Shown piece after piece: positions 10,590-45,373 of a stretch of 64,000 bases of DNA; positions within the stretch are counted from its first letter, which is position 1; each line of letters begins with the position of its first letter. This DNA comes from Chloroflexota bacterium. GTDB taxonomy: Bacteria > Chloroflexota > Anaerolineae > DTLA01. The stretch is from assembly GCA_014874485.1 (NCBI GenBank), contig JADBJK010000015.1, positions 55,955-119,954 of the forward strand. Reading direction: 5' to 3'. The notes below the pieces were generated by a model, which was not told the origin of the DNA, did no database searches, and saw nothing but the letters and a program-made list of their open reading frames with translations. The translations under genes were made by a program, and so were the position numbers.

Positions 10590-10646
10590 AGCCAGGACAA
10601 CGCAAAGACGCGCTGAGACGTTCACGGGCGCGCTGGGACTGGACGG

Positions 10647-11132: not shown

Positions 11133-11138
11133 GTCGCC

Positions 11139-11480: not shown

Positions 11481-11485
11481 CCCCC

Positions 11486-12151
11486 ATGAAGAAAGTGGAA
11501 GTCGTAACCGACATCATGAGTGCCAACGACCAGATCGCCCAGGAGAACGCCGAAACCCTCCGGGCGCATGGCATCCTCACGGTGAACCTGATGGCATCGC
11601 CCGGGGCCGGCAAGACCAGCCTCATCCTGGAGACCGCGCGGGCGCTTGACGGCCGCCTGCGCCTGGGCGTGATTGAGGGCGACGTGGCCTCGCGCATTGA
11701 CGCGGACAAGGTCGCCGCCGCGGGGATTCCCGTGGTGCAGATCAACACCGGCGGCGCGTGCCACCTGGACGCGCCCATGATCCGCCAGGCGCTCCGCGCG
11801 CTCCCGCTGGACGAGATAGACCTGCTCATCGTGGAAAACGTCGGCAACCTCATCTGCCCGGTGGAGTTTCGCCTGGGCGAGACGCTGCGCGTCATGATCG
11901 CCAGCGTGCCCGAAGGCCACGACAAGCCCTACAAGTACCCGGGCATCTTCACGGCAGTGGAGGCCGTCGTCATCAACAAGATGGATTTGGCCCCCTACGT
12001 GGACTTTGACCTGGGCGCGCTGCACGAGGCCATACGGGGCATGAACCCGCGCGCCGAAATCTTTGAGGTCTCCTGCCGCACGGGCGAAGGCATTGGCCGA
12101 TGGGCCGAATGGCTCTGGGCGCAGTGGCAGGCGTATCGGCCGGCGAAGTAG
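11486..12151 (+). CDS. hypB: Hydrogenase nickel incorporation GTPase HypB
   Basis: The product has a P-loop (ASPGAGKTS) and a CH metal motif (GGACHLD), and is 221 aa long. Confidence 0.85.
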   Translation: MKKVEVVTDIMSANDQIAQENAETLRAHGILTVNLMASPGAGKTSLILETARALDGRLRLGVIEGDVASRIDADKVAAAGIPVVQINTGGACHLDAPMIRQALRALPLDEIDLLIVENVGNLICPVEFRLGETLRVMIASVPEGHDKPYKYPGIFTAVEAVVINKMDLAPYVDFDLGALHEAIRGMNPRAEIFEVSCRTGEGIGRWAEWLWAQWQAYRPAK

Positions 12152-12172
12152 GGGGAGAGGGCGGTCCCGGAC

Positions 12173-14560
12173 ATGGCCTCGGTTGTCGCCAATCGGTTCA
12201 AGGTAACCGGCGTGGTGCAGGGGGTGGGTTTCCGCCCCTTTGTGTACGGCCTGGCGGTGGGGCTGGGGCTGCGCGGCTGGGTCATCAACACGTCGTCGGG
12301 CGTGGTGATTGAGGTGGAAGGCCCGCCCGATGCCCTGGATGCCTTCGCGCGCGACCTGGTGGCGAAGGCCCCGCCCGTGGCGCGCATAGAGACCGTGCAG
12401 CGGGAGGAGATTCCGCCCAACGGCTGGGAGCGGTTTGAAATCCGCGAGAGCCGGGCCGAGGCTGGGTACGTGCTCATCTCGCCGGACATCGCCACCTGCC
12501 CCGAATGCCTGCGCGAACTGTTTGATCCCAACGACCGCCGCTACCGCTATCCGTTCATCAACTGCACCAACTGCGGGCCGCGTTTCACCATCATCGCCGA
12601 CGTGCCTTACGACCGGCCCCTGACCACCATGGCCGCGTTCCAAATGTGCCCGGAATGCCAGGCCGAGTACGATGACCCGCTGAACCGCCGATTCCACGCG
12701 CAGCCCAACGCCTGCCCCGTGTGCGGGCCGCGGGTGTGGCTTGTGCCCGCTTCGGCGCAGGACGCCGAGGCGCTGACCCCGCCCGCGGGCGACCCGGCCA
12801 ACGCCGAGGTGCTCGCCGAGGCAGCGCGCTTGCTGCGGGGAGGCGCCATCCTCGCCATCAAGGGCCTGGGCGGGTTCCACCTGGCCTGCGATGCGACCAA
12901 CCCCGACGCAGTGCGCACGCTGCGGGAACGCAAGCGCCGCCCGGCGAAGCCCTTGGCGGTGATGATGGCCTCGCTGGACGAGGTGCGCCAGCATTGCGAG
13001 ATCACGCCCGACGAGGAGGCGCTCCTGACCTCGCGCCAGTGCCCCATCGTCCTGCTGGAGTGGAAGCGCGACTCCACAGTTGTGGAGGAGGTGGCGCCGA
13101 ACAACCGCTACCTGGGCGTGATGCTCCCCTACACGCCGCTGCACCATATTCTGCTCCGCGACGCCGGGCGGCCGCTGGTCATGACGAGCGGCAACCTGTC
13201 GGAGGAGCCTATCGCGCAGGACAACGAGGAGGCCTGGCGTCGGCTGCGCGGCCTGGCCGATTGGTTTCTGCTCCACAACCGGGCCATCTACGCCCGCTAC
13301 GATGACAGCGTCTGGTTTGTGCCGCGCGTCCCCGACGGCAAGGCGGGTGCCGAGTCGGTGCCCCAGCCGCTGCGCCGCTCGCGGGGCTACGCGCCGTATC
13401 CCGTGCGCCTGCCCTTCCGCGCCCGCACGGTGCTGGCCACCGGCCCGGAACTCAAGAACACCTTCTGCATCACCCGCGACGAGCATGCCTTCGTTAGCCC
13501 CCACATCGGCGACATGGAGAACCTGGAGACGCTGGAGCACTACGAGACGGCCATGGGCCTCTACGAGCGGCTGTTCCGCCTGCGGCCTGATGCGATAGCC
13601 TGCGACCTGCACCCCGACTACCTGGCGACGCGCTACGCCCACGAGCGGGCCGAGCGGGAGCGCCTGCCCCTCATCGGCGTGCAGCACCACCACGCCCACA
13701 TCGCGGCGTGCATGGTGGACAACGGTATCACCGAGCCGGTCATCGGCGTGGCCCTGGACGGCACGGGGTACGGCCTGGACGGGCGAATCTGGGGCGGCGA
13801 GTGGCTGGTCGCCGACCTGCGCGGGTTCCGCCGCGCCGCGTGGCTGGAGCCGCTCCCGCTCCCCGGCGGCGACGCGGGCATCCGCAACCCGTGCCGCATC
13901 GCGTATGCGTACCTGCATGCGCTGTTCGGCGAAGTCCCCGCGCTGCCCTTCCTGGCGCAGATGGACGAGGCCGAAATCGCCGCCGTGCAGCGGCAGGTGG
14001 AGCGCGGCCTGAACACCGTTCTGACCACGTCCTGCGGCCGGCTGTTTGACGCCGTCGCAGCGATGGCCGGCGGGCGGGGCCGCGTTACCTACGAGGCGCA
14101 GGCGGCCATTGAGATGGAGATGGCATCGGAGGGCGACGAGGGCGACCCCTACGGGTACTTCTTCCGCTGGGCGGAGCCGCTCGCCTGGGGGAACACGGAT
14201 GCCTTGCCCCCGCTGGCCTGCGCCTTTGAGGTCGCCCTGAAGCCGCTGCTGGCGGGCGTCGTGCGCGATGTCCAGGCCGGGCGGATGCTGGGCGAAGTGG
14301 GCGGGCGCTTCCACCGCACGCTGGCGAACATGATCGCCGACCTGTGCTGCATGATCGCGCAGGGCACCGGCCTCGCGACGGTGGCCCTGTCGGGCGGGTG
14401 CTTCCAGAACCGCCTGCTGCTGGAACAGTCGGTGGGCGAACTCCGACGGCGCGGGCTGCGCGTGCTGCTGCACCGCCAGGTTCCGGCCAACGACGGCGGC
14501 GTGTCGCTGGGCCAGGCGGCCATCGGCCACTTTGCCCTTGAGGAGGGGCGGGCGCGATGA
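12173..14560 (+). CDS. hypF: Carbamoyltransferase HypF
   Basis: It contains an acylphosphatase domain (VQGVGFRPFVY), two CxxC...CxxC zinc fingers, and YrdC and Kae1-like domains, for 795 aa in total. Confidence 0.9.
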   Translation: MASVVANRFKVTGVVQGVGFRPFVYGLAVGLGLRGWVINTSSGVVIEVEGPPDALDAFARDLVAKAPPVARIETVQREEIPPNGWERFEIRESRAEAGYVLISPDIATCPECLRELFDPNDRRYRYPFINCTNCGPRFTIIADVPYDRPLTTMAAFQMCPECQAEYDDPLNRRFHAQPNACPVCGPRVWLVPASAQDAEALTPPAGDPANAEVLAEAARLLRGGAILAIKGLGGFHLACDATNPDAVRTLRERKRRPAKPLAVMMASLDEVRQHCEITPDEEALLTSRQCPIVLLEWKRDSTVVEEVAPNNRYLGVMLPYTPLHHILLRDAGRPLVMTSGNLSEEPIAQDNEEAWRRLRGLADWFLLHNRAIYARYDDSVWFVPRVPDGKAGAESVPQPLRRSRGYAPYPVRLPFRARTVLATGPELKNTFCITRDEHAFVSPHIGDMENLETLEHYETAMGLYERLFRLRPDAIACDLHPDYLATRYAHERAERERLPLIGVQHHHAHIAACMVDNGITEPVIGVALDGTGYGLDGRIWGGEWLVADLRGFRRAAWLEPLPLPGGDAGIRNPCRIAYAYLHALFGEVPALPFLAQMDEAEIAAVQRQVERGLNTVLTTSCGRLFDAVAAMAGGRGRVTYEAQAAIEMEMASEGDEGDPYGYFFRWAEPLAWGNTDALPPLACAFEVALKPLLAGVVRDVQAGRMLGEVGGRFHRTLANMIADLCCMIAQGTGLATVALSGGCFQNRLLLEQSVGELRRRGLRVLLHRQVPANDGGVSLGQAAIGHFALEEGRAR

Positions 14561-15654
14561 AGTTCATAGACGAGTTCCGCGACCCTCGGTTGGCCCGCTC
14601 GCTGGTGGAGCGCATCCGCCAGCGCGCGCGCAAGCCCATGCGCCTGATGGAGTTCTGCGGCGGACACACCCACGCCATCCTGCGATTCGGCATTCGCCAG
14701 GCGCTGCCGCCGACGGTGGAGATGCTGTCGGGGCCCGGGTGCCCGGTGTGCGTTACCGCCGCCGCGGACCTGGACCGGGCCATCGCCATGGCGGGTGTGC
14801 CGGGAGTCATCCTGGCCACCTTCGGCGACATGATCCGCGTGCCGGGGAGCCGCGAGAGCCTGCAGCAGGCCAAAGCGCGGGGCGCGGACATCCGCATCGT
14901 GTACTCGCCGCTGGACGCCGTGCGGCTGGCGGAGCAGAACCCGTCGCGGCCCGTGATCTTCCTGGGCGTGGGGTTTGAGACGACGGCCCCGGGCGTGGCG
15001 GCTTCCGTCCTGGACGCGCACGCGCGCGGGGTTGGCAACTACTACGTACTGTGCCTGCACAAACTCACGCCGCCCGCTACCCGCGCCATCTTGGATTCGG
15101 GCGAGGTCAACCTGTCGGGCGTCCTGGGGCCGGGACACGTTACCACCGTCATCGGGACGAAGGCGTGGGAGTTCCTGCCGCGCGAGTACGGCGTGCCCAT
15201 CGCCATCGCGGGATTTGAGCCGCTGGACATCCTGCGGGGCATCTCCCTGCTGGTGGAGCGGATTGCGGAGGGCGAGGCGCGCGTGGACAATGCCTATTCC
15301 CGCAGCGTGCTCCCGGAAGGGAATCGGGCGGCCCAGGACATGATGGCCCGCGTGTTTGAGGTGGCCGACGCCGAGTGGCGCGGGCTGGGGACGATACCGG
15401 CCAGCGGCCTGTGCATACGGCCGGAGTTCCAGGCCCACGACGCGGCGCGCGCGTTTCCGGTGGACGTGCCGCCGTCGCGGGAACCGCCAGGATGCCGCTG
15501 TGGGGACGTCTTGCGGGGCGTCTTGGCTCCGCCTTCGTGCCCGTTGTTCGGCAGAGCGTGCACGCCGGAGCACCCCGTCGGCCCGTGCATGGTGTCGGCC
15601 GAGGGGGCCTGCGCCGCCTACTATCAGTTTGGAGATGCGGGACATGAAGGATGA
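14557..15654 (+). CDS. hypD: Hydrogenase maturation factor HypD
   Basis: The motifs EFCGGHTHAI and GPGCPVCV are present. The start overlaps the hypF stop (ATGA). Confidence 0.85.
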   Translation: MKFIDEFRDPRLARSLVERIRQRARKPMRLMEFCGGHTHAILRFGIRQALPPTVEMLSGPGCPVCVTAAADLDRAIAMAGVPGVILATFGDMIRVPGSRESLQQAKARGADIRIVYSPLDAVRLAEQNPSRPVIFLGVGFETTAPGVAASVLDAHARGVGNYYVLCLHKLTPPATRAILDSGEVNLSGVLGPGHVTTVIGTKAWEFLPREYGVPIAIAGFEPLDILRGISLLVERIAEGEARVDNAYSRSVLPEGNRAAQDMMARVFEVADAEWRGLGTIPASGLCIRPEFQAHDAARAFPVDVPPSREPPGCRCGDVLRGVLAPPSCPLFGRACTPEHPVGPCMVSAEGACAAYYQFGDAGHEG

Positions 15655-16651
15655 GGCCATCCTGCTCGCCCACGGCAGCGGCGGGCGGCTGACGCACGAA
15701 CTGATCCGCGACCTGTTCCTGAGCGAGTTGTCCAATCCGTTCCTGGACGCGCTGGGCGACGCCGCTGTCCTGCCGCCGCAGAGCGGCCGCCTGGCCCTGA
15801 CCACCGACTCCTACGTGGTTCGGCCGGTCTTCTTCCCTGGCGGGGACATCGGCAAACTGGCCGTGTGCGGCACGGTCAACGACCTGAGCATGGTGGGCGC
15901 GCGCCCGCTTTTCCTGACCATCGGGTTCATCCTGGAGGAAGGGCTGCCCTTCGCCGACCTGCGGCGCATCGTGCGCTCGGCGGCGCAGACGGCCCGCGAG
16001 GCTGGCGTCCAGATTGTGGCCGGCGACACGAAGGTGGTGGACCGGGGCAGCGCCGACCAGGTGTTCATCAACACGGCGGGCGTGGGCCTCATTCCGGAGG
16101 GGGTCTCCCTGTCGCCGAGCGCCATCCGTCCGGGCGACGTCGTCCTCGTGTCGGGGACCGTGGGCGACCACGGGATTGCCGTCATGGCCCAGCGGGAAGG
16201 GTTGGGGCTGAGCACGTCGCTGGCCAGCGACTGCGCCCCCCTGAACGGTCTGGCGCAGGCCGTGGTGGCGTGCGGCGGCGTGCGGGTCATGCGCGACCCC
16301 ACGCGCGGCGGCCTGGCGACCACGCTGGTGGAACTGGCGCAGGCAGGCGGCGTGGGCCTAGAGATTGACGAGAGCGCCGTGCCCGTCAAGGATGCCGTGC
16401 GGGGCGCGTGCGAACTCCTGGGCCTGGACCCGCTGTACGTCGCCAACGAGGGCAAGTTGGTGGCGGTGGTGGCAGCCGAGGCGGCGGACGCTGCCCTCGC
16501 CGCGATGCAGGCGCACCCGCTGGGCCGCGATGCCCGCATCATCGGGCGCGCCACCGATGGGCATCCGGGGCGGGTCGTCCTGAAGACGCTGCTGGGCGTG
16601 TCCAGGGTTGTAGAGATGCTGACGGGCGAGCAGTTGCCCAGGATATGCTGA
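15635..16651 (+). CDS. hypE: Hydrogenase maturation factor HypE (start at internal ATG 15635 or 15644; the upstream part of the track ORF is an artefact overlapping hypD)
   Basis: The product is an AIR-synthase-like fold (MKDEAILLAHGSGG...) that overlaps the hypD stop. Confidence 0.8.
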   Translation: MRDMKDEAILLAHGSGGRLTHELIRDLFLSELSNPFLDALGDAAVLPPQSGRLALTTDSYVVRPVFFPGGDIGKLAVCGTVNDLSMVGARPLFLTIGFILEEGLPFADLRRIVRSAAQTAREAGVQIVAGDTKVVDRGSADQVFINTAGVGLIPEGVSLSPSAIRPGDVVLVSGTVGDHGIAVMAQREGLGLSTSLASDCAPLNGLAQAVVACGGVRVMRDPTRGGLATTLVELAQAGGVGLEIDESAVPVKDAVRGACELLGLDPLYVANEGKLVAVVAAEAADAALAAMQAHPLGRDARIIGRATDGHPGRVVLKTLLGVSRVVEMLTGEQLPRIC

Positions 16652-16890: not shown

Positions 16891-17358
16891 TTGAACGACA
16901 AACTCCGTGAAGTCCTGCAAGCGCCGGTAACCGGCAAAGGAGACCTCATCCCGCTGCTCCAAAAGGCTCAGGAGGCCGAGGGATACGTCTCCGAGGAGGC
17001 CATCTACGCCATCGCCGAGAAACTGCGCATTCCCGCCAGCGAGGTGTTCGGCGTGTTGTCCTTCTACGCGCAGTTTCGGCTGCGTCCCATGGGCAAGCAC
17101 AACGTCAAGATATGCCGGGGCACGGCCTGCCACGTGCGCGGCTCGCCCCTTATCGTTACCGCTGTGGAGAGCGAACTGAAACTGGGCGGCGGCGAGGATA
17201 CGACTTCGGATGGCTTGTTCACGGTGGAGAAAATCGCCTGCTTCGGGGCGTGCAGCCTGGCGCCGGTGATGGTGGTGAACGGGCGCACCTACGGGAACCT
17301 GAGTCCGGACAAGGCGCGCCGCCTGATTCGCAAGATCGCGGAGGAAGAACATGTATAG
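16891..17358 (+). CDS. fdsG: NAD-dependent formate dehydrogenase gamma subunit (NuoE-like [2Fe-2S])
   Basis: The 155-aa product has the CRGTACHVRG...CFGACSLAP motif. It is a paralogue of hoxE. Confidence 0.75.
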   Translation: MNDKLREVLQAPVTGKGDLIPLLQKAQEAEGYVSEEAIYAIAEKLRIPASEVFGVLSFYAQFRLRPMGKHNVKICRGTACHVRGSPLIVTAVESELKLGGGEDTTSDGLFTVEKIACFGACSLAPVMVVNGRTYGNLSPDKARRLIRKIAEEEHV

Positions 17359-19210
17359 CGACTACGCCTCTTTGCGCGCCTGGGCCGAGGGCGAAGTGCA
17401 ACGCACCCGTCCGCCCGACCGAACCCGCATCCTCATCGGGCTGGGCACGTGCGGCATCGCCGCCGGCGGGCTGGACGTCCTGACAGCCCTGCGCGAGAAA
17501 CTGGCCGATATGCGCGTCCCTGCCGAGATCGTTCCCGTGGGCTGCATCGGCATGTGCTTTGAAGAGCCGCTGGTGGACATCGTAAGACCGGGCGAGCCTC
17601 GCATCTGCTACGCCAAGGTAACCCCCAAGAGCGTCCCGACCATTCTGGAAGAGCACCTACTCCACAACAACGTGCGCAAGGATTTGGCCTTCGCGGTCAT
17701 CGGCGACGAGCCTTACGACGGTATCCCATCGTGGAAGCAGTTGCCCTTCTTCGCCACCCAGCGACGAACGGTGCTGCGCAATTGCGGGTTCATTGACCCC
17801 GAATCGGTCGCCGAGTACATCGTCCACGATGGGTACGCCGCCCTGGCGAAGGCACTGTTTGAGATGACGCCCGAGTCCGTGATTGAGGAAGTGAAGCGGT
17901 CGGGGTTGCGCGGCAGGGGCGGCGCGGGGTTCCCAACGGGCATGAAGTGGGAATTCTGCCGAAAGTCCCCTGGCGACCACAAGTACATCATCTGCAACGC
18001 GGACGAGGGCGACCCTGGTGCCTTCATGAACCGTAGCGTCCTGGAGGGCGACCCCCACAGCGTGCTGGAGGGACTGCTCATCGCCGCCTACGCCATCGGT
18101 GCCGACCACGGCTACATCTACTGCCGCGCCGAGTATCCCCTGGCCATCGTGCGGCTGCGCAAGGCGCTGGAGCAGGCGCGGGCGCTGGGACTCCTGGGCG
18201 AGCACATCTTCGGCACCGACTTCAGTTTTGACGTAACCATCAAGGAGGGCGCGGGCGCGTTCGTCTGCGGCGAGGAGACCGCGCTCATGGCGTCCATAGA
18301 GGGCAAGCGCGGGATGCCCCGACCCCGCCCGCCGTTCCCCGCGCAGAAGGGCCTCTGGGGCCAGCCCACCAACATCAACAACGTGGAGACGCTGAACAAC
18401 ATCCCGCCCATCATCCTCAACGGCGCTGATTGGTTCGCTGCCGTGGGCACCGAGAAGAGCAAGGGCACCAAGACCTTCGCCCTGACAGGTAAAATCGCAA
18501 ACTCGGGACTGATAGAAGTCCCGCTCGGTATGCCGCTGCGCGAGATTATCTTTGAAATCGGCGGCGGCATCCCCAAAGGCAAGAAGTTCAAGGCCGCGCA
18601 GACAGGTGGTCCCTCAGGTGGGTGTATTCCGAGTTCCATGTTGGACATCCCGGTGGACTATGAGTCGCTAACCGCGGCCGGTTCCATCATGGGCTCCGGC
18701 GGGCTCGTCGTCATGGACGAGGACAACTGCATGGTTGACGTCGCGCGGTTCTTCCTCTCCTTCACCCAGAGCGAATCGTGCGGCAAATGCATTCCCTGCC
18801 GACTGGGCACCAAGCGCATGCTGGAGATACTAGAACGCATCACCCGAGGTGAGGGTCAGGAAGGCGACATAGAGTTGCTGCTGGAACTGTGCGAGACGGT
18901 GAAACTCGGGTCGCTGTGCGGGCTGGGCCAGACGGCTCCCAACCCCGTGTTGACCACCATCCGCTACTTCCGCGACGAGTACGAGGCCCATATCAAAGAG
19001 CACCGCTGCCCGGCCAAGGTGTGCAAGGCGCTCATCACCTACCGCATCTCCGAGGAGAAGTGCACCGGCTGCACCCTGTGCGCTCGCAACTGCCCCGTGG
19101 GTGCCATCAGCGGCGAGCGAAAGAAGGTGCACGTGATTGACCCGGCCGTCTGCACGCGCTGCGACACCTGTCGCCAGGTGTGCAACTTTGACGCGGTCCT
19201 CGTGGAATAG
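17351..19210 (+). CDS. fdsB: NAD-dependent formate dehydrogenase beta subunit (NuoF-like, FMN/NAD-binding, N-terminal 2Fe-2S and C-terminal 2x[4Fe-4S])
   Basis: The 619-aa product has the motifs GRGGAGFPTGMKWEF, CGKCIPCR and C-terminal CTGCTLCARNCP...CTRCDTCRQVC. Confidence 0.8.
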   Translation: MYSDYASLRAWAEGEVQRTRPPDRTRILIGLGTCGIAAGGLDVLTALREKLADMRVPAEIVPVGCIGMCFEEPLVDIVRPGEPRICYAKVTPKSVPTILEEHLLHNNVRKDLAFAVIGDEPYDGIPSWKQLPFFATQRRTVLRNCGFIDPESVAEYIVHDGYAALAKALFEMTPESVIEEVKRSGLRGRGGAGFPTGMKWEFCRKSPGDHKYIICNADEGDPGAFMNRSVLEGDPHSVLEGLLIAAYAIGADHGYIYCRAEYPLAIVRLRKALEQARALGLLGEHIFGTDFSFDVTIKEGAGAFVCGEETALMASIEGKRGMPRPRPPFPAQKGLWGQPTNINNVETLNNIPPIILNGADWFAAVGTEKSKGTKTFALTGKIANSGLIEVPLGMPLREIIFEIGGGIPKGKKFKAAQTGGPSGGCIPSSMLDIPVDYESLTAAGSIMGSGGLVVMDEDNCMVDVARFFLSFTQSESCGKCIPCRLGTKRMLEILERITRGEGQEGDIELLLELCETVKLGSLCGLGQTAPNPVLTTIRYFRDEYEAHIKEHRCPAKVCKALITYRISEEKCTGCTLCARNCPVGAISGERKKVHVIDPAVCTRCDTCRQVCNFDAVLVE

Positions 19211-19241
19211 CCACGGTTCTCGGATGGAAGGAGACGCAGAC

Positions 19242-21953
19242 ATGACCATTACGCTGACCATAGACGGCAAGACGGTGAGTGTGAAAGAGGGGGCCACGGT
19301 CCTGGATGCCGCCAAGGAAGCGGGCGTGTACATCCCCACCCTGTGCGCCGATGAGGACCTGCTGCCCTTTGGCGCGTGCCGCCTGTGCCTGGTAGAGGTG
19401 CAAGGCGACCGCAGGCCCATGCTCCCCTCGTGCACCACGCCTGCCACCGACGGGATGGTGGTGCGCACCTCCAGCCCGATTATTGACAAGACGCGGCGCA
19501 ACGTCGTGGAACTCTTGCTGTCCGACCACCCGGAGGACTGCTTGACCTGCCCGCAGAACAACCGCTGCGAACTCCAGCGCGTGGCGGCCTACGTGGGCGT
19601 CCGCACCAACCGCTTCCGCGGCGAGAAGCACGCCTACCCGATTGACGATTCCAACCCGTTCTACCGCCGCGATTTGGACCGCTGCATCCTGTGCGGCAAG
19701 TGCGTGCGCACCTGCGACGAGATTCAGCAACTGGGCGCCATCAACTTCGCCTACCGCGGCTTCCGCACCAAGATCGCGACCGTGCTGGACCGGCCGGTGG
19801 CGACTTCCACCTGCGAGTCGTGTGGGCAGTGCGTGGACAAGTGCCCGGTGGGCGCGCTGTACCCGGAGGCATGGCTACGGTACGGCCTGCCCGCCGCCGA
19901 GACGAAGACCATCTGCGCCTATTGCGGCGTGGGGTGTGGCCTGATCCTCCAGACGCGCGGCAACACGGTGGTGGGCGTCCGCGGCGACCCCGACAACCCC
20001 GTGAACCACGGCCGCACCTGCGTCAAGGGGCGGTTCGGATACGAGTTCATCAACCACCCAGACCGCCTGAAGAAGCCGCTCATCAAGAAAGACGGGGCCT
20101 TCGTGGAGGCCACCTGGGACGAGGCGCTTGACCTCGTGGCCCAGCGGCTGGCGTCGGTGGTGCGCGAACACGGCCCCGACGCGGTGGCACTGCTCACATC
20201 CGCAAAGTGCACCAACGAGGAGAACTACCTGCTCCAGAAATACGCAAGGGGGGTGCTGGGGACGCACAATGTGGACCATTGTGCGCGTCTCTGACACAGC
20301 AGCACCGTGACCGGTCTGGTCACAGCATTCGGCTCCGGGGCCATGACGAACTCCATTGAGGACATGAAGGAGGCCAAAGCCTTCCTCATCATCGGCTCCA
20401 ATACCACCGAGCAGCACCCCATCATCGGGCTAAACATCCGCAAGGCAGTGCGCGAGGGCGCGCGGCTCATCGTAGTGGACCCGCGCAGCACAGACCTGGC
20501 GAGGCGCGCCGACATCCACCTGTCCATTGATCCGGGGGGCAACATCGCCCTGCTCAACGGCCTGGCGCACATCATCCTGAAAGAGGGCTGGGAAGACAAG
20601 GAGTTCATCGCCTCCCGCACCGAGGGGTTTGACGAGTGGCGGGCGGTGGTGGAGAAATACACGCCCGAACGGGTCAGCGAGATCACCGGCGTTCCGGTGG
20701 AGCGCCTGTACGAGGCGGCGCGCCTGTACGCCACGACGAAGCCCGCCGCGCTGGTGTACGCCATGGGCGTAACCCAGCACACGTCGGGCCACCAGGGTGT
20801 GCAGGCGTGCGCCAACCTGCAAATGCTCACGGGGAACATGGGCATCCGTGGGGGTGGGGTCAACCCGTTGCGCGGCCAGAACAACGTGCAGGGCGCGTGC
20901 GACATGGGCTGCCTGCCCGACTTCTTCCCCGGCTACCAGCGCGTTGCCGACGACAAGGCCCGCGAGAAGTTCGCCCAGGCGTGGGGCGCTCGCTTCGGCG
21001 ACAAGCCCGGCCTCACCATCGTGGAGATGCTCAACGCCGCCGAGCAGGGGCGGCTCAAGGCGCTCTACGTTACCGGCGAGAACCCGGTCATGAGCGACCC
21101 CGACAGCCAGCATGTGGTCCACTGCCTGGAGAGCCTGGACTTCCTCGTGGTGCAGGACATCTTCCTCTCCGAGACGGCCCGCCTGGCCGACGTGGTGCTG
21201 CCCGCCGCGTCCTTCGCCGAGAAGGCCGGGACGTTCACCAACACCGAGCGGCGCGTCCAGTTGATTCGCCCCGCCATTGACCCGCCCGGCGAGGCGCGCC
21301 CCGATTGGGAGATCGTGGCCGACCTGGCCCGGCGCACGCTGAAGGCCCTCGGCCACACGCCCGACGGGCCATACGCTGGCTGGGATTACACATCCCCCGC
21401 CCAGATCATGGACGAAGCCGCGGCGCTGACGCCCATCTACGGGGGCATCCGCCACAGCCGCCTGGAGAACGGCGGAATCCAGTGGCCGTGCCCGTCTCCC
21501 GACCATCCGGGCACGCCCATCCTGCACGTCGGCAAGTTCTCGCGCGGTCTTGGAAAGTTCAATCCGGTGGAGTACATCCCACCCGCCGAGACGCCGGACG
21601 ACGCCTACCCGCTCATCCTCACGACCGGCCGCAGGCTGGAGCACTATCACACGGGCACCATGACGCGCCGCGTGGCCGGGCTGAACAAACTGGCCCCGGA
21701 GGAGCGCGTGGAGATCAACACAGAAGACGCGGCCCGCCTGGGCATCGCCGACGGCGACTGGGTCGTCGTGGAATCCAGGCGCGGCCGGGTGAAGGTGCGG
21801 GCGGCAGTGGGGCAGCGGTGCAAGCCGGGCGTGGTCTTCATGACGTTCCACTTCGCCGAGGCCCTGGGCAACGTGCTGACCCACACAGCGCTAGATCCCG
21901 TGTCCAAGATTCCGGAACTCAAAGTGGCCGCCGTTCGCGTGCTGCGGGCATAG
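19242..21953 (+). CDS. fdhA: Formate dehydrogenase alpha subunit, selenocysteine-containing (in-frame TGA at 20292..20294); molybdopterin/tungstopterin enzyme with an N-terminal NuoG-like Fe-S domain
   Basis: Track ORFs 19137..20294 and 20307..21953 are in the same frame and separated only by TGA. The flanking sequence VDHCARL-U-HSSTVTGL aligns residue-for-residue with E. coli FdhF VDHQARV-U-HGPSVAGL. The downstream region matches FdhF closely (RTEGFDEW, GVNPLRGQNNVQGACDMG). The RBS GGAAGGAG lies before ATG 19242. Confidence 0.85.
20307..20323 (+). other. SECIS-like hairpin 12 nt downstream of the fdhA UGA (GTGACC-GGTCT-GGTCAC)
   Basis: A perfect 6-bp stem with a GGUCU apical loop resembles the GGUC loop of the E. 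coli fdhF SECIS. Its position relative to the UGA is canonical. Confidence 0.5.
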
Positions 21954-38330: not shown

Positions 38331-38580
38331 CCTCCTCGCTCCTATGTCGGATTGTCCAGCCAACAAATATAGCGCAAGAAGATTAATGAGAGATTAGAAA
38401 GGGTTTAGAGGATGCAGAGAGGGGCCGGGCGCGAAGGCGGATCGCGGTCTGCGTTTGGGGAGGCACCGCCTCGCGCCGGGTCTGCCCGGGGGTAACCTTT
38501 CAGAAATCATTGCACGGGGTTGGGATATAGATAAGTTTCGCTTATTTACAAGATTTAGACTGCGCCCCGCTTACATAGAT

Positions 38581-38609
38581 TTGACAGATAGGCCCCGCCT
38601 CGTTACAAT
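38581..38609 (+). promoter_or_regulatory. Sigma70-like promoter TTGACA-N17-TACAAT in an unusually AT-rich patch, upstream of the rhodanese gene
   Basis: The -35 is consensus and the -10 matches 5/6. An AT-rich UP-like region lies upstream. Confidence 0.5.
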
Positions 38610-38714
38610 ATCCACAAGCCGTTGTGCGTACAGCGCCGGTCAAGCGTCGTTGGAGGCCAGTACTTTGAAATCCTGCACCACCTGAAAACCCCATTCAAGG
38701 AGGACAGAAGGTCT

Positions 38715-39824
38715 ATGCGGAACAAAGTTGTGTCCTTGCTACTCGCTGTAACTCTCTTGCTCATTGCAGTATCGCCTGCTTTCGCCGAAGGCCCCAGCGG
38801 AGACTTTGAGGTCATTCGGGCCGCGGCCGAGAAGTATCTCACCACGGTCAAGTCACCCGTCATCACCGCCGACGCCCTGTACACGCTGCTGAACGACGGG
38901 GATGCTTCCAACGACCCATTCATCCTCAGCGTGCGTAAGCCGGAGGACTACGCGCTGGGCCACATTCCGGGCGCGGTGAACATCTTCTACAAAAACATCG
39001 CCAAGCCCGAGAACCTGGCCAAACTGCCCAAGGACAAGCAGATCGTGGTCTACTGCTACACCGGCCACACCGGCCAGATCGCGACCACCATCCTCAACCT
39101 CCTGGGCTACAACGCCGTCAACCTCAAGTTCGGGATCATGGGCTGGACGAAGAACGACGCGGTCCTGAACCAGAAGCGGTTCGGCCCCGACACCGAACAG
39201 CGCGACTACCCGCTGGAGACCACGGTCAACGAAGCGACGGCCACCTATCCCTACCCGACCGTCTCCACGGGCGCGACCGGCGACTTTGAGATCATCCGCA
39301 CCGCCGCCGATAACTGGCTGAACAGCGCCAAGGCCCCCATCGTTACCGCCGATTCCGTGTTTGAGAACCTGAACGACGGCGACGCGTCCAACAATCCGGT
39401 CATCGTCTCCGTGCGCACGGCCGAACACTACGCGCTGGGCCACATCCCGGGCGCCATCAACATCTTCTACAAGGACATCGCCAAGCCCGAGAACCTGGCC
39501 AAACTGCCCCCGGACAAGCGCATTTTGACCTACTGCTACACCGGCCACACCGGAATGGTGGCGGCGACGATCCTGGGCCTGCTGGGTTACGACGCCGGCA
39601 ACATCAAGTACGGCATGATGGGCTGGACCAAGGACGACAAGGTGCTCGCCCAGGCGCGGTACGATGTCAAGACGGCTCCCGACTATCCGGTTGAGGGCAC
39701 TGCCGCTCCCGCCAAACTGCCCGTTACCGGTGCCGAGACCAACCTGACGTGGGTCGTGCTGGTCGCCGGCATCGCCGCTCTGCTCACGGGCAGCGCCCTG
39801 TACGCAAAGCGCACGACGCGCTAG
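38715..39824 (+). CDS. Secreted tandem-rhodanese (two sulfurtransferase domains) with C-terminal LPXTG sortase anchor
   Basis: It has a signal peptide, two near-identical rhodanese domains each with an active-site loop CYTGHTG, and a C-terminus LPVTG + hydrophobic helix + KRTTR. The RBS is AAGGAGG. Confidence 0.75.
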   Translation: MRNKVVSLLLAVTLLLIAVSPAFAEGPSGDFEVIRAAAEKYLTTVKSPVITADALYTLLNDGDASNDPFILSVRKPEDYALGHIPGAVNIFYKNIAKPENLAKLPKDKQIVVYCYTGHTGQIATTILNLLGYNAVNLKFGIMGWTKNDAVLNQKRFGPDTEQRDYPLETTVNEATATYPYPTVSTGATGDFEIIRTAADNWLNSAKAPIVTADSVFENLNDGDASNNPVIVSVRTAEHYALGHIPGAINIFYKDIAKPENLAKLPPDKRILTYCYTGHTGMVAATILGLLGYDAGNIKYGMMGWTKDDKVLAQARYDVKTAPDYPVEGTAAPAKLPVTGAETNLTWVVLVAGIAALLTGSALYAKRTTR

Positions 39825-39972
39825 TTCTGGCTGCAAAGACGCCGGTTGGCCTCCGGGCGTCTTGACGCGGTAAGGCTTGCTTCGGGGGATTGCCGCGAGG
39901 CGATTCCCCGAAGCACCCAAAAACGACGGATTTCGCAGTACCTACCAGTTGACCACAGAGGAAAGTACCCGT

Positions 39973-40126
39973 TGTCATTGTGAGCGAAGCGAAGCAATCT
40001 CACGCTCCGTCTGTCATGCTGAGCGCAGCGGAGCATCTCGGTTAACGAGATTCTTCGGCGCTTCGTGCCTCAGTAGGGACAATTCATGAATTGTCCCTAC
40101 GGGCGCTGCGCGCCCTCGCAATGACA
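39973..40126. mobile_element. MITE-like element, copy 2 (154 bp, with an internal perfect palindrome GGGACAATTCATGAATTGTCCC)
   Basis: It has the same TIRs and module order as copy 1. Confidence 0.7.
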
Positions 40127-40177
40127 ACCAGTAAGAAGCCCTGTGGTGCAGTACCTAATCCAGAAGAGAGGTGGCAC

Positions 40178-41578
40178 ATGAAACCCAAAACCCTGATCTG
40201 GGTGGTGGGTTTGGTCGGGATCACGGTGCTGATCCTGGCGGCCTGTGGAGCCGCGGCGACGCCTACGCCGACCACAGCGCCCACGAAAGTACCGCCGATC
40301 AACACGCCTGTACCACCGCCCACCAACACCCCGGCACCGACGAACACTCCGGTGCCCCCGACACCCACGCCCATCCCGAGCGCGGACAACTGCGTGGCGT
40401 GTCATACCAACGCGGAAACCCTGCAGAAACTCGCCGAGACCAAGAAGACCGGCTCCGCCGAAACCGAAGGCGAGGGTTGAGCGGGCGAGTTGCCTCCGTT
40501 GGAGGCATGGGAAAAGGTCTTCATCGGCAACGACACCTTCCTCAAGGACGTCCACAACACGCCCAACTGCATCGGCTGCCACGGCGGCCAGCCGGATACG
40601 AATGACAAGGCCGTTGCCCACCAGGGCGTGGTGCGCGACCCGTCAGCCGATCCCCAGGGTGTCTGCGCCAACTGCCACGGCGACATCGCCAAGACCTACG
40701 CCACTTCGCTGCACTACACCATCAGGGGGTACTACACCATCCTCGGCGAGCGCGGGTTTGACTTCAACGACCCGGCCAAGGCCGAAATCTTCAACCGCCA
40801 CTGCACCAGTTGCCATGCGACCTGCGGCCAGTGCCACATCTCGCGGCCCACGTCGGCCGACGGCGGCCTCGTGAAGGATCACCAGGTCAAGAGCATCGTC
40901 TCGCTCAGCGACACGTGCCTGGGCTGCCACGGCGGGCGCGTCGGCCCCGAGTTCATGGGCAAGAACGCGGGCGTGCCCGGCGACGTCCACTGGACCAAGG
41001 GCGTCAACTGCTTCAAGTGCCACAATATGACGCAGTTCCACGGCGACGGCACGCAGTACGCCCACCGGTACGACGGCAAGCCTGTGCCTTCGTGCCTGGA
41101 TTGCCACCCGGACGCCGCGCCCGGCAAGGGCCAGGTCATGCAGCACAACATCCACGGCGACAAACTGGACTGCCGCGTGTGCCACTCGGCCGGGGCCTAC
41201 AAGTCCTGCTGGAACTGCCACGTCGGCCTAGACAAGGAAGGTCTGCCGTATCGCAAACTTGACCCGTCGGTGATGACCTTCAAGATCGGCAAGAACCCGA
41301 ACCCGACGCCCGACCGACCGTGGGAGTACGTCCTGGTGCGGCACATCCCGGTGCCCGCGGACATCTTCGGGTACTACGGCGACAACATGCTGCCCAACTG
41401 GGCCGCCGTGCCCACCTGGAAGTACGCCACCGTGCACAACATCCAGAAGATCACGCCGCAGAACCAGGACTGCAAGAACTGCCACGGCCATCCGGAACTG
41501 TTCCTGACGGAGAAGGACGTGGATCCGGCGGAACTGGAAGCAAACCGCGCCGTGATCGTTACGGAGATTCCGAAGTAG
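40178..41578 (+). CDS. Multiheme c-type cytochrome lipoprotein (~11 CxxCH motifs) interrupted by a single in-frame TGA at 40478..40480: either selenocysteine/readthrough or a disrupted gene
   Basis: Track ORFs 40091..40480 and 40490..41578 share a frame and are separated only by the TGA. The upstream part supplies a signal peptide with a lipobox (LAAC), a PT linker and the first heme site (CVACH). The downstream part has ten CxxCH motifs but no signal peptide of its own. A hairpin TGCCTCC-GTT-GGAGGCA begins 11 nt after the TGA. Confidence 0.55.
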
Positions 41579-42066
41579 TCGGTTTCACCGCAGAGAACGC
41601 AGAGACCGCAGAGGGAGACGAGAAATCGGGCTCCTTTGCGGTCTCTGTCATGAAATTGCTGCCCGCACTGCCTGGCTTGTCATTGCGAGGGCGCGTAGCA
41701 GTCGGTTTCACCACAGAGAACGCAGAGACCGCAGAGGGAGACGAGAAATCGGGCTCCTTTGCGGTCTCTGTCATGAGCTTGCTGCCACACTGCCCGGCTT
41801 GTCATTGCGAGGGCGCGAAGCAGTCGGTTTCACCACAGAGAACGCAGAGACCGCAGAGGGAGACGAGAAATCGGGCTCCTCTGCGGTCTCTGTCATGAGC
41901 TTGCTGCCACACTGCCCGGCTTGTCATTGCGAGGGCGCGAAGCAGTCGGTTTCACCACAGAGAACGCAGAGACCGCAGCGGGAGACGAGAAATCGGACCC
42001 CCTTTGCGGTCTCTGTCATGAAATTGCTGCCCTCATGCGACGCACCTCGCAGGTGCATCGCACGTT
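41579..42066. repeat. Tandem array of four ~120-bp units of a second repeat family (GTTTCACCRCAGAGAACGCAGAGACCGCAGAG... ending in TGTCATTGCGAGGGCGCG)
   Basis: The period is about 120-121 bp (41579/41700/41820/41940). Each unit contains an 11-bp-stem hairpin CAGAGACCGCA...TGCGGTCTCTG. Confidence 0.75.
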
Positions 42067-42086: not shown

Positions 42087-44483
42087 CTACGCCTCGCGCA
42101 CCTTGAACCCCCGCAGCCGCAGGGAGTTGCTCACCACGAAGATGGAACTCATCGCCATAGCGCCGGCGGCGATCATGGGGTTCAGGAACCCTGCCGCTGC
42201 CGCCGGAATCAGCACCGTGTTGTAGAAGAACGCCCAGAACAGGTTCTGCTTGATGGTGCGCATGGTCCCGCGCGACAGCGCCACGGCCCGCGCCACGCCC
42301 CGCAGGTCGCCGCTCATCAGCGTGATGTCGGCGGCCTCCATGGCGATGTCGGTGCCCGTGCCGATGGCGATGCCCACGTCGGCCTGGGCCAGGGCAGGCG
42401 CGTCGTTGATGCCGTCGCCCACCATGGCGACCACGTGGCCCTCGTCCTGCAGGCGCTTGACCTCCAGGGCCTTGTCCTGCGGCAGGACCTCGGCCAGCAC
42501 GCGGTCTATGCCCACCTGGGCCGCGATGGCCTCGGCCGTGCGGCGGTTGTCGCCGGTGATCATGGCCACCTGCAGCCCCAGGTCGTGCAACATGCGCACG
42601 CCCTCGGCAGAGCCGGCCTTGACCGTGTCGGCCACGCCCACGACGCCGACCGCCGCATCCCCCACCGCCACCACCAACGTCGTCTTGGCCTCGCCCTGAA
42701 GGCGCTCCACATCCCTGTCCAGCCCGTTGAGGCGGACGCCGTTCTCCTCCATGAGTTTCAGCGTGCCCAGGAGCACCCTCTCACCGTTCACATGGCCGAC
42801 CACACCCTTGCCGCTGACGGCTTGGAACTCGGACACGGCGGCCAGCGCCAGACCGCGCTCGCGGGCGGCTTGCACGATGGCCTCGCCGATGGGGTGCTCG
42901 GAGCCTTGCTCCACCGACGCGGCCCAGCGCAGCACCTCGGCCTCGTCGCCGTGCAGGGCCACCACGTCGGTAACCGACGGCTTGCCCTCGGTGATGGTGC
43001 CGGTCTTGTCCAGCACGACCACGTCCACGTCGCCGGCCCGCTCCAAGCTCTCGCTGCTCTTGATGAGGATGCCGTTCTCCGCGCCCTTGCCCGTCCCCAC
43101 CATGATGGCCGTGGGCGTGGCCAGGCCCAGGGCGCACGGGCACGCGATGACGAGCACCGCCACCATGTTGAGCAGGGAGCGGGTGAACCCCGCGTCGCCG
43201 ATGAAGTACCAGCCCAAGAATGTGAGCACGGCAACGGCGATGACCACCGGCACGAAGACCGCCGACACGCGGTCGGCCAGGCGCTGGATGGGGGCCTTGG
43301 AACCCTGCGCTTGCTCCACCAGACGGACGATTTGCGCCAGGACCGTGCCCTTGCCCACCTGCGTGGCCTGAACCTTCAGCAGGCCCTGCTTGTTCACCGT
43401 CGCGCCGACGACCTGGGAGCCGGGGGCCTTTTCCACCGGCAGGCTCTCGCCCGTGAGCATGGACTCGTCCACGGCCGAGGTTCCCTCCAGCACGACGCCG
43501 TCCACGGGGATGCGCTCGCCCGGACGCACGACCACCACGTCGCCCACGCGCACGTCGCCGACGGCCACTTCCACCTCCGCGCCGTCGCGGATGACCCGCG
43601 CCGTCTTCGGGGCCAGGCCCATCAGCCGCTTGATGGCCTCGGACGTGCGGCCCTTGGCCCGCGCCTCCAGGTACTTGCCCAGGATGATGAGGGTGATGAT
43701 GACCGCTGCGGTGTCGTAGTAGAGCGGCCCCGTGATGAAGAACGTGCTGGCGACGCTGTACAGGAACGCCGCCGACGACCCCATGGCGATGAGCACGTCC
43801 ATGTTGGCCGAACCTGCGCGCAGGGCCTTGTACCCGCCGCGGTAGAACTGCCAGCCGATGACGAACTGCACGGGGATGGTCAGCGCCAGCAGGAGATAGG
43901 GACGCCAGGCGAAGTCGGGAATTAGACCGCCGTCCACGCCCATGCTGAGGATGGAGATGATGAGGCTCAACGCCACGCCCCAGGTGAGTTTGCGGCGCTG
44001 GGTGCGGATTTCCCGCTCACGCGCGGCCCGCTCGGCGTCCTCCACCTCTTCGCCCGCGCCCGCCTCCACGACCTCGTAGCCCACGTCCACGATGGCCCGC
44101 TTGATGTCGGCGAGGGACACCGCCGTGGGGATGTACTCCACGGTGGCCCGCTCGCTGGCCAGGTTCACGTTGGCCTCCACAACGCCGTCCAGTTTCCGCA
44201 GCGCCCGCTCAATGGTCAGCGCGCAGTTGGCGCACGTCATGCCGCGGATGGGCAGTTCGGCCTTCGCCGTCGTCGCGCCGTACCCCAGGTCGGCGATGGT
44301 CGCCACGACGCGCTTCTCGTCCACCAGGGCAGGGTCGTACTCCAGCGTTACGCGCTCGGCGGCGAAGTTCACGGCGGCGTTCTGGACGCCGTCCAGTTTC
44401 TTCAGGCCGCGCTCTATGGTCAGTGCGCAGTTGGCGCACGTCATCCCAGTTACGGGAATGGTCAGTTGCTTCTTGTCGGGCAT
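42087..44483 (-). CDS. copA: Copper-translocating P1B-type ATPase
   Basis: It has two N-terminal HMA domains (GMTCANC), a CPC transmembrane motif, DKTGT, and GDGINDAP. Confidence 0.9.
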
Positions 44484-44504
44484 GGGTACCTGCCTTTCCT
44501 ATGC

Positions 44505-44868
44505 TTACGTTTCACCGCAGAGGGCGCGGAGACCGCAGAGATCAAGGTTTCTAGAACTTGACCGCAGAGTAAATTGTCTGGTGTCATTGCGGGCCAAGCA
44601 TCTCGCGGCCCACGTGCGAGGCACCTCCGAGGTGCGTCCCACGTGCCCCTGCTGGGATTGCTTCGGGCGCTGCGCGCCCTCGCAATGACACCTCATCTGT
44701 CATGCTGAGCGAAGCGAAGCATCTCGGTTGACGAGATTCTTCGGCGCTTTGCGCCTCAGAATGACGGTCTAGTGAGCGAAGCAGTCTCCTGCTTGCGGGC
44801 GATTGTTTCACCGCACCTGTGCAAGCATCCCCTAGCACCCTCTGCGTTCTCTGCGACTCTGCGGTGAG
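44505..44868. repeat. Composite repeat block: a rearranged MITE copy (44582..44766) flanked by second-family modules
   Basis: It contains GTGTCATTGCG..., the hairpin module GCGAGGCACCTCCGAGGTGCGTC, the GTCATGCTGAGCGAAGCGAAGCATCTCGGTTGACGAGATTCTTCGGCGC module, and GTTTCACCGCAGAG modules. Confidence 0.65.
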
Positions 44869-44870
44869 GC

Positions 44871-45077
44871 TCACTCCGCGGCGGGGTAGCCGATCTCCTG
44901 CAGCGTCTTCAGCACCGCCGCCAGCGTCTCGGGCGAGTCCACCTTGACCGAGACCTGCTTGGTCTGGACGTCGGCCTGGACCTCGGCCACGCCCTTCACC
45001 TGGCCCAGTTCGCGCTGGATGGTGCGCACGCAATGGTGGCACGAGATGTTGGGGACGTTCAACACTTTGCTAATCAT
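44871..45077 (-). CDS. copZ: Heavy-metal-associated (HMA) copper chaperone
   Basis: The 68-aa product has the metal-binding loop SCHHC. Confidence 0.7.
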   Translation of the reverse strand: MISKVLNVPNISCHHCVRTIQRELGQVKGVAEVQADVQTKQVSVKVDSPETLAAVLKTLQEIGYPAAE

Positions 45078-45094
45078 CTTATCCGCTCCTTATG

Positions 45095-45373
45095 CTAGAG
45101 TTTTCTGGATAACTCAAAGATGTCCATGAGTTCGCCGATGACGCGCTCGCGCTCGTCTGGGTTCTCGCCGCGGATGGCGGTGGTAACGCAGGTGTGCAGG
45201 TGGCCGTTGAGCACCAGGGCGTTGACCCTGTCCAGGGCGCGCTGGACGGCGAGGACCTGCTTGATGATGTCCACGCAGTAGGCATCCTCGTCCACCATGC
45301 GCTGGATGCCGCGCAGGTGCCCCTCGGCGGTAGCCAGGCGGGCCTTCACGTCGCTCTTGAGTTGGTTGTCCAT
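45095..45373 (-). CDS. csoR: CsoR-family copper-sensing transcriptional repressor
   Basis: The 92-aa product has C-H-C ligand spacing (YCVD...HLHTC). Confidence 0.8.
   Translation of the reverse strand: MDNQLKSDVKARLATAEGHLRGIQRMVDEDAYCVDIIKQVLAVQRALDRVNALVLNGHLHTCVTTAIRGENPDERERVIGELMDIFELSRKL

Follow-up and report, generated by a model that had tools for sequence, protein, structure and literature searches.

A widespread 11-haem cytochrome family of Chloroflexota, probably selenocysteine-containing and linked to secreted rhodaneses

A 64,000-nucleotide (nt) stretch of contig JADBJK010000015.1 from a Chloroflexota bacterium, hereafter called the window, carries a gene for a secreted tandem rhodanese followed by what databases present as two fragments of a multihaem cytochrome c. 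An earlier note on this DNA had proposed that the two proteins form a functional couple. Our analysis indicates that the cytochrome fragments belong to a single gene interrupted by an in-frame UGA codon, that this UGA is very probably read as selenocysteine (Sec), and that the same arrangement, often with the rhodanese fused to the cytochrome, recurs across a large family of relatives.

The rhodanese gene (38715..39824, forward strand) encodes a protein of 369 amino acids (aa) with a signal peptide at residues 1–24 (cleavage between SPAFA and EG), and the rhodanese domain PF00581 matches it in two stretches (E = 9.8e-36, 122.7 bits). Both domains have an intact CYTGHTG catalytic loop, at residues 114–120 with Cys114 (39054..39074, forward strand) and at residues 274–280 with Cys274 (39534..39554, forward strand); the protein thus differs from classical tandem rhodaneses in having a catalytic Cys in each domain. 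It ends in a sorting signal (39717..39821, forward strand) made of LPVTG at 39717–39731, 23 mostly hydrophobic residues and a KRTTR tail, which narrowly passes the LPXTG anchor model TIGR01167 at 16.5 bits (cut-off 15.9). The description in the earlier note of a rhodanese with two intact loops, a secretion signal and an LPVTG motif was therefore borne out. Its supposed rarity was not: a search at E ≤ 1e-3 returned 1,537 homologues, the best 120 all below 1e-136, mostly of about 370 aa and from Anaerolineae or other Chloroflexota, and several of them are already named ‘LPXTG-motif cell wall-anchored protein’ in databases. A [LMV]P.TG motif, a hydrophobic stretch and a basic, Arg-rich tail recur in about 30 of the 49 separate rhodaneses found upstream of related cytochromes, which argues that the sorting signal is under selection and not fortuitous.

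The cytochrome gene follows on the same strand (40178..41578), from an ATG at 40178 to a TAG at 41576–41578. Its database annotation consists of two open reading frames (ORFs) of 100 aa and 362 aa; both parts lie in the same frame, and translation through the UGA at codon 101 gives one 11-haem lipoprotein cytochrome c of 466 residues. The N-terminal part opens with a lipoprotein signal peptide (40178..40246, forward strand), whose lipobox is LAAC (Cys23). A linker of about 45 residues, rich in Pro and Thr, comes next, and then the only haem motif 5′ of the UGA, haem motif 1 (CVACH, 40391..40405, forward strand). A lipobox is present in most non-fused homologues, and haem motif 1 is conserved in the loci that reach that far upstream. 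The UGA itself (40478..40480, forward strand), a conserved TGA in the DNA, lies in the motif S-E-x-E-G-E-G-U-[AG]-G, where U is the proposed Sec101. The local context is AETEGEG-TGA-AGELPPLEAWEK, and from there the frame runs unbroken through ten further CXXCH sequences, haem motifs 2–11 (CIGCH to CKNCH, 40568..41485, forward strand). Pfam matches above cut-off are Cytochrom_c3_2 (PF14537), Cytochrome_C7 (PF14522) and C554 (PF13435). In an alignment of 51 sequences, nine of these ten motifs are invariant apart from one Cys conserved at ≥90%, motif 2 is conserved at ≥90% throughout, and twelve His residues outside the motifs are invariant or ≥90% conserved. The earlier note had called the cytochrome a lipoprotein of about 11 haems; the lipobox and the eleven CXXCH motifs agree with this, provided that the in-frame TGA at 40478–40480, which it had overlooked, is decoded.

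The ten-haem part 3′ of the UGA has no signal peptide, and its sole possible start is a TTG inside a conserved LPPLE sequence. Attachment of c-type haem occurs after export, and a stand-alone ten-haem product could therefore not mature. By this reasoning the ten-haem part can presumably be exported and matured only as the product of UGA read-through.

In an exhaustive profile search with the cytochrome, 939 representatives passed E ≤ 1e-3, of which 184 also passed 1e-30. A relative of the cytochrome is encoded by 467 GTDB species representatives, and for comparison at the DNA level we took 80 of these, together with further contigs; this set covers Anaerolineae, Caldilineae, Ardenticatenales, Thermoflexus, Dehalococcoidia, Acidimicrobiia and Actinomycetes, and the nearest relative of the window locus is a Caldilineae metagenome-assembled genome (MAG) with 96% identity. 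We scored 87 related sites, which comprise 84 distinct sequences for the codon and hairpin statistics. The haem-1 segment and the downstream body share one frame at 87 of 87 sites. Of the 84 distinct sequences, 83 have TGA as the intervening codon and the remaining one has TGG; TAA, TAG and Cys codons do not occur among them. The surrounding residues are conserved as C..CH-(about 27 residues)-S-E-G-E-G-(stop)-[GA]-G-x-[LV]-P-P-[LV]-E-A-W. The boundary is also visible in protein databases, in which the cytochrome homologues begin with (M/L)PPLEAWEK or MEAWEK just 3′ of the TGA codon and the matching 100-aa N-terminal fragments terminate at GEG. Reassignment of TGA as a sense codon was excluded, as TGA is the ordinary stop of 9 of the 35 Pfam-supported genes in the window. 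Stop codon use in these 35 genes is otherwise TAG in 25 and TAA in one; TAG as the commonest stop is probably unusual at about 66% GC.

A hairpin resembling a selenocysteine insertion sequence (SECIS), UGCCUCC-GUU-GGAGGCA, starts 11 nt after the UGA (40491..40507, forward strand). Its 17 nt form a stem of 7 base pairs closed by a GUU loop, a geometry like that of the minimal Escherichia coli fdhF SECIS, a 17-nt stem-loop about 11 nt from its UGA. Across the 84 sequences, 97.6% of cells are paired, a share that drops to 42–58% with the 3′ arm shifted out of register. Three of the seven pairs show compensatory exchanges: one pair from G-C, four times to A-U and a single time to C-G, and two pairs from C-G, of which one has changed once to G-C and the other twice to A-U. 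Some of these exchanges come at the price of an Ala-to-Val, Ala-to-Gly or Pro-to-Gln replacement, and in a shuffle test none of 500 shuffles reached any of the five observed measures. The five full codons within the hairpin (+5 to +9, Pro-Pro-Leu-Glu-Ala) have a third-position entropy of 0–0.39 bit, against 0.9–1.9 bit for the flanking Gly, Glu and Val codons, and they are held at CCU (99% of sequences), CCG (100%) and GCA (95%) in a gene whose GC content at third codon positions is about 0.9. The one gene of the Cys form that we examined, L093, retains only three of the seven pairs. Single-sequence folding is unremarkable relative to shuffles (z = −0.74 for this hairpin and −0.02 for that of the formate dehydrogenase gene described below), and an Rfam scan of 38300–42100 at E ≤ 10 returned only noise and no SECIS family. 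The case for the hairpin rests on the comparative data; on those data, it most likely directs decoding of UGA-101 as Sec.

Distant, uninterrupted homologues indicate which residues can take the place of the proposed Sec. Cys stands at this column in P0290 (GEG-C-GG), P0272, P0274, P0299 and P0317, and a vicinal pair, GEC-C-GG, in P0289 and P0292; in L093 the codon is TGT. Vicinal Cys pairs of this kind recall the redox-active C-terminal loops of thioredoxin reductases. The Cys forms came from the exhaustive profile search; a word-index protein search with a short query over the Sec site gave 11 candidates, all of them fragments. In L060 (at 9995) the codon at the Sec position is TGG yet the hairpin is retained, which may reflect a recent change or a sequencing error. 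In L092 (2136..3596) the codon is likewise TGG and the hairpin is gone, inspection of the sequence revealing no equivalent. The possibility that Trp at this column is an artefact of translation with genetic code 4 was excluded, as the codon in P0253 is a real TGG.

The window holds a second interrupted gene, at a canonical Sec site. The alpha subunit of an NAD-type formate dehydrogenase (FdhA, 19137..21953, forward strand) is annotated as two ORFs split by an in-frame TGA at 20292–20294 in the context HCARL-U-HSSTV, and the Pfam Molybdopterin model continues across the stop. A 17-nt hairpin with a GGUCU loop starts 13 nt after this UGA, with a geometry resembling that of the cytochrome hairpin. 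Genes for NuoE- and NuoF-like subunits lie upstream (16891..19210). From its sequence, the organism is evidently the carrier of a classical selenoprotein gene, and Dehalococcoidia, also Chloroflexota, are on record with up to 49 selenoproteins (PMC13326102). We are highly confident that the cytochrome is a selenoprotein as well.

The upstream DNA was long enough to score linkage to a rhodanese at 72 loci. At 63 of these, a rhodanese is encoded just before the cytochrome in the same orientation; at 14 of the 63 it is fused in frame to the cytochrome, with one to six rhodanese domains ending about 25 residues before haem 1. Three of the nine loci without an upstream rhodanese have rhodanese hits just downstream. 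Because related genomes keep the two genes adjacent or fuse them, we regard a functional coupling of cytochrome and rhodanese as very likely, in line with the couple proposed in the earlier note, and the synteny that it had suggested looking for in related genomes is amply present. Its statement that the rhodanese sits immediately upstream holds for order and strand; in the window, the two genes are separated by a spacer of 354 nt, in which copies of a repeat and a strong hairpin occur. This hairpin (39836..39863) lacks a U-tract, is GC-rich, has a stem of about 10 base pairs, begins 12 nt past the rhodanese stop and may terminate or attenuate transcription into the cytochrome gene. Compared with the spacer of the close relative L001, that of the window has about 180 nt more.

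Two architectures can be distinguished. In the window, a lipoprotein cytochrome is combined with a separate, wall-anchored double rhodanese. In the fused type (L017, L071, L078 and L080 among others), a signal peptide is followed by one or more rhodanese domains, haem 1, Sec, 10–12 haems and a C-terminal transmembrane helix. Directly 3′ of the fused genes lie genes for a protein of the 4x[4Fe-4S] type with a twin-arginine translocation (Tat) signal and a C-terminal helix, and for a cytochrome b (PF01292, Ni_hydr_CYTB), which together we take to be the membrane module of FdnGHI and of the thiosulfate reductase PhsABC. By analogy, this iron–sulfur (FeS) and cytochrome b module would link the fused-type enzyme to the quinone pool. 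The fusions probably also explain why the Joint Genome Institute (JGI) names some cytochrome fragments ‘thiosulfate/3-mercaptopyruvate sulfurtransferase’; more generally, the 100-aa fragment goes by ‘hypothetical’ and the 362-aa fragment by ‘cytochrome c3 family’.

Some loci vary these themes. At L016 an N-terminal part of 1009 aa with six rhodanese catalytic loops is fused 5′ of the Sec-cytochrome, and at L037 an N-terminal part of 493 aa contributes 12 extra CXXCH motifs 5′ of the Sec codon. A typical fused-type locus, L024 (SHMX01000014.1), is found in a MAG labelled Candidatus Thorarchaeota, probably as a mis-binned Chloroflexota contig. At the fused-type locus L091 (3497..6532), the genes for cytochrome, FeS protein and cytochrome b are followed by a helix-turn-helix regulator, three DsrE-like proteins, DsrH and TusA. 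Neighbours of the DsrE/TusA kind occur in 2 of the 92 sequences searched, the second being a DsrE-like neighbour at L069; with so low a count, sulfur-relay neighbours were dropped as a defining feature.

The closest parallel in the literature is MccSep (ExtKL, GSU2937-2936) of Geobacter sulfurreducens, a 5-haem Sec-containing reductase of polysulfide and also selenite, described in 2026 with structures PDB 9WT8-9WTC (PMC13510729). Its gene is split by UGA and clusters with a gene for the rhodanese-like lipoprotein ExtH (PMC13510729; PMC5877670). Both systems have an extracytoplasmic multihaem cytochrome c with one UGA-encoded Sec that splits the annotated gene, a SECIS-like hairpin after it, a rhodanese-family gene in the cluster, and Sec-type as well as Cys-type relatives. 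The proteins themselves differ. MccSep combines 5 haems with an immunoglobulin-like stem, whereas the window cytochrome has 11 haems; its Sec is near the C terminus in D-G-U-P, whereas Sec101 lies between haems 1 and 2 in G-E-G-U-G/A-G; and it needs the haem-ligating Cys239, whereas the window family lacks a conserved Cys outside its CXXCH motifs. MccSep is soluble in the periplasm of Desulfobacterota and Nitrospirota; the present system is anchored to lipid and wall, or fused to rhodanese, and occurs in Chloroflexota and some Actinomycetota. A search with the protein and its profile against a PDB library containing both 9WT8 and 9WT9 gave no similarity to either at E ≤ 10, and the cytochrome does not match NF040886, the MccSep/ExtKL model. 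The window rhodanese reaches 20.4 bits on the ExtH model NF040901 (cut-off 200) and has an LPXTG anchor rather than a lipobox.

A 2026 review of prokaryotic selenoproteins lists MccSep/ExtKL, the GSU2204 family (NF041027) and the tetrathionate-reductase-type octahaem cytochrome (TIGR04315) as its only cytochrome families (PMC13188914). The latter two resemble the present family in being c-type haem proteins of which some members have Sec, and the window cytochrome matches neither NF041027 nor TIGR04315 at E ≤ 0.1. A full-text literature search found no description of a UGA-containing 11-haem cytochrome family. Judged by these comparisons, the window family is separate from MccSep/ExtKL, though similar in outline (Sec, haem chain and rhodanese).

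Rhodaneses that feed or form part of a reductase offer further points of comparison. In Wolinella succinogenes, the periplasmic rhodanese-like protein Sud transfers polysulfide sulfur to the polysulfide reductase PsrABC, so that there, too, an extracytoplasmic rhodanese-fold protein brings sulfane sulfur to a respiratory reductase. That reductase is a molybdopterin enzyme and not a protein of haem and Sec, and the Sud–PsrABC system is not known to involve fusion or cell-wall anchoring. Among the closest solved rhodanese domains of the window rhodanese are those fused to an oxidoreductase in PDB 3NTA/3NTD, the entries of Npsr, an NADH-dependent persulfide reductase with a fused rhodanese domain. 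Npsr reduces a rhodanese persulfide within one polypeptide that joins rhodanese and reductase module, an arrangement paralleled by the fusions at L017, L071, L078 and L080, but is a cytoplasmic flavoprotein with a Cys–coenzyme A redox centre and neither haem nor Sec. For PhsABC and FdnGHI, the likeness to the fused clade lies in the 4x[4Fe-4S]-type protein and PF01292 cytochrome b; their catalytic protein contains molybdenum bis-pyranopterin guanine dinucleotide, in place of which the present loci have a rhodanese and a Sec-cytochrome, and in the window the module is not adjacent.

Taken together, these likenesses lead us to propose, with a probability of roughly 60%, that the locus encodes a two-part redox system at the cell surface that acts as a sulfane-sulfur (polysulfide or thiosulfate) reductase. 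A cysteine persulfide would form on the rhodanese, its sulfane sulfur drawn from polysulfide, thiosulfate or S0, and this sulfur would be handed to the selenolate of Sec101, part of a flexible Gly-rich loop that separates haem 1 from haem 2 in the sequence. The haem chain would then supply electrons that resolve the resulting Se–S adduct with release of sulfide. For the fused sister clade, the source of these electrons would be menaquinol, by way of the FdnH-like 4Fe-4S protein and the FdnI/PhsC-like cytochrome b; in the window organism, the electron donor would be encoded elsewhere than nearby. Reduction of sulfane sulfur is suggested because of the MccSep precedent, the rhodanese-fused and rhodanese-fed reductases Npsr and Sud–Psr, and the vicinal Cys pairs of the Cys-type relatives. 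We put the odds that the cytochrome reduces sulfane sulfur at about even. It seems similarly balanced whether the family constitutes an independently evolved second class of multihaem selenoenzyme, in which a dedicated rhodanese, often fused, would pass sulfane sulfur straight to Sec, with no part for a haem-ligating Cys.

Several observations weigh against this proposal. Outside the CXXCH motifs, the cytochrome has no conserved or near-invariant Cys in the 51-sequence alignment, and the MccSep mechanism, with its haem-ligating Cys and Sec, is therefore not simply transferable. A structure of the ten-haem part predicted from the same alignment is poor (predicted local distance difference test (pLDDT) 52.6, predicted TM-score (pTM) 0.38), so that Sec cannot be placed relative to a haem. 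No quinol-oxidising or electron-transfer module adjoins the cytochrome in the window, the spacer sets it apart from the rhodanese, and a sortase (PF04203) was not found among the 55 candidate reading frames scanned in the window. Where the FeS and cytochrome b module is present, the direction is also in question, as cytochromes b of the FdnI type more often serve donor oxidation. A few relatives have Trp, His, Met or Tyr at the Sec site, including the true TGG of L092 and also L060, which suggests that the residue there is dispensable for folding. L093 (Cys) and L060 and L092 (Trp) have no rhodanese immediately upstream, a hint, from three cases only, that Sec and an adjacent rhodanese go together. 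Finally, searches by tblastn with E. coli SelA, SelB and SelD and by ARAGORN for tRNA-Sec found neither selA, selB and selD nor tRNA-Sec in the window and 86 related loci (about 1.1 Mb); because the DNA searched consists of short stretches, this absence weighs little.

The same parts could work in the opposite direction, with rhodanese and Sec-cytochrome oxidising sulfide, polysulfide or thiosulfate outside the cell and passing electrons through the haems, and in the fused clade through the FeS protein and cytochrome b, to the quinone pool, in the manner of TsdA/SoxAX or of an FdnGHI redox loop. Such a role is suggested by the proteins encoded 3′ of the fused genes, as counterparts of this FdnH-like Tat 4Fe-4S protein and of the Ni_hydr_CYTB cytochrome b serve donor oxidation in formate dehydrogenase-N and hydrogenase-1; the same module, however, runs in reverse in Salmonella PhsABC. 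The DsrE, DsrH and TusA genes adjoining the L091 locus would also suit oxidation, but such neighbours are confined to the two sequences noted above. The authors of the MccSep study mention a possible relation to the reverse of TsdA/SoxAX, yet their enzyme, the sole characterised Sec-containing multihaem enzyme, is a reductase (PMC13510729). The window family, moreover, has no His/Cys haem signature, as it lacks a conserved extra Cys. We consider sulfur oxidation unlikely.

Another possibility is that the system mainly handles oxyanions of selenium or tellurium: the rhodanese would form a perselenide and the Sec-cytochrome would reduce selenite or tellurite on the cell surface, for detoxification or selenium supply. 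MccSep is active on selenite, with a Vmax of 59 compared with 83 μmol min−1 mg−1 on polysulfide, which is nevertheless its preferred substrate (PMC13510729), and ExtI and ExtH have been implicated in selenite handling (PMC5877670). The window proteins give weak NCBIfam matches to the Geobacter ‘selenite/tellurite reduction operon’ (E = 2e-4 for ExtH and about 1e-11 for ExtN, ExtO and ExtM), but these fall far under the cut-offs (20–44 against 200–800 bits) and amount to generic rhodanese and haem motifs. The spread of the family over at least 467 species, in sediments, sludge and springs, fits abundant sulfur better than trace selenium. This explanation seems to us quite improbable.

We give even less credence to the idea that Sec101 ligates a haem on its distal side, or acts as a redox tuner, within an electron-transfer wire outside the cell, for metal reduction for example, with the rhodanese as an accessory. 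Two distant homologues, P0250 and P0256, do have His or Met, which could ligate a haem, at or beside the Sec column, and some loci (L090 and L092) lie inside clusters of other multihaem cytochromes. However, Trp and Tyr also occur at this column, with a true TGG in L092, and the twelve conserved His residues outside the motifs suffice for bis-His ligation of all 11 haems. The Cys-type relatives often have the vicinal pair of GEC-C-GG, which is typical of redox-active dithiol loops, and a simple wire would not account for a cytochrome so closely linked, or even fused, to rhodaneses whose catalytic loops are intact.

A true stop or pseudogene, with two products, a monohaem lipoprotein of 100 aa and a distinct ten-haem protein, agrees with every public gene call, all of which split the gene, and with the lack of Sec machinery in the window and related loci, but is very improbable, and the pseudogene or two-gene reading was rejected, given that the downstream part has no export signal and only the TTG within LPPLE as a start, that frame, flanks and the TGA itself are conserved in 83 of 84 sequences from several classes and two phyla, that the hairpin covaries, and that Cys homologues exist.

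Upstream of the rhodanese gene, a sigma-70-like promoter match, TTGACA-17-TACAAT (38581..38609, forward strand), lies about 105 nt 5′ of the ATG; by pattern alone, it agrees with the consensus at 11 of 12 positions. Both hexamers are kept in the close relatives L007 and L008, where the spacer and the DNA farther upstream diverge, and the promoter falls in the lowest-GC 1-kb bin of the window (GC 0.58), so that the AT-rich consensus promoter described in the earlier note stands. An inverted repeat, ATAAGtttcgCTTAT, precedes the −35 hexamer; this repeat and the 5′ leader of about 105 nt (both within 38531..38714) are near-identical in L007 and L008, with diverged DNA beyond the repeat, and may represent an operator and a regulatory leader. 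Rfam gave no match for the 38531..38714 region.

On the other side of the locus lie 3.8 tandem copies of a 122-nt unit, with 94% matches (41571..42031), which extend from the last bases of the cytochrome gene to just before copA, and shorter related copies lie in the spacer between rhodanese and cytochrome (about 39940–40130). Genes for copA (798 aa), a copZ-like HMA protein and csoR follow on the reverse strand (42087..45373) and are syntenic in L001–L003. These three loci have ccm genes upstream, where the window has an ABC-2 transporter cluster instead. Farther away lies an NAD(P)-linked [NiFe] hydrogenase cluster (3374..16648), which encodes a NuoF–GltD-like fusion, a NuoG-like protein, the small and large subunits, and maturation proteins from hypA, hypB, hypF, hypD and hypE-like genes; the hydrogenase and the formate dehydrogenase are possible electron sources for the organism.

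By its sequence record, the UGA-containing 11-haem cytochrome family is widespread, spanning at least 467 species, mainly Chloroflexota, and is routinely split by gene callers. Recognising the UGA corrects a gene that is carried as two fragments in hundreds of genomes and adds a family missing from the 2026 catalogue of prokaryotic selenoproteins (PMC13188914). It provides a natural comparison for MccSep, the sole characterised enzyme that combines Sec and haem, with a shared logic in another fold and no haem-ligating Cys, and the natural rhodanese fusions point to direct hand-over of a persulfide to Sec. The anchoring would suit a redox enzyme outside a single-membrane cell: a lipid anchor and Pro/Thr linker on the cytochrome, and a wall anchor on the rhodanese. 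Little is established about how far Anaerolineae and Dehalococcoidia, which abound in sediments and digesters, take part in sulfur cycling or depend on selenium, and the gene pair offers a concrete object for such tests. If the proposal is correct, Chloroflexota of sediments and sludge would have an unrecognised, selenium-dependent route of sulfur respiration or cycling at the surface of a single-membrane cell.

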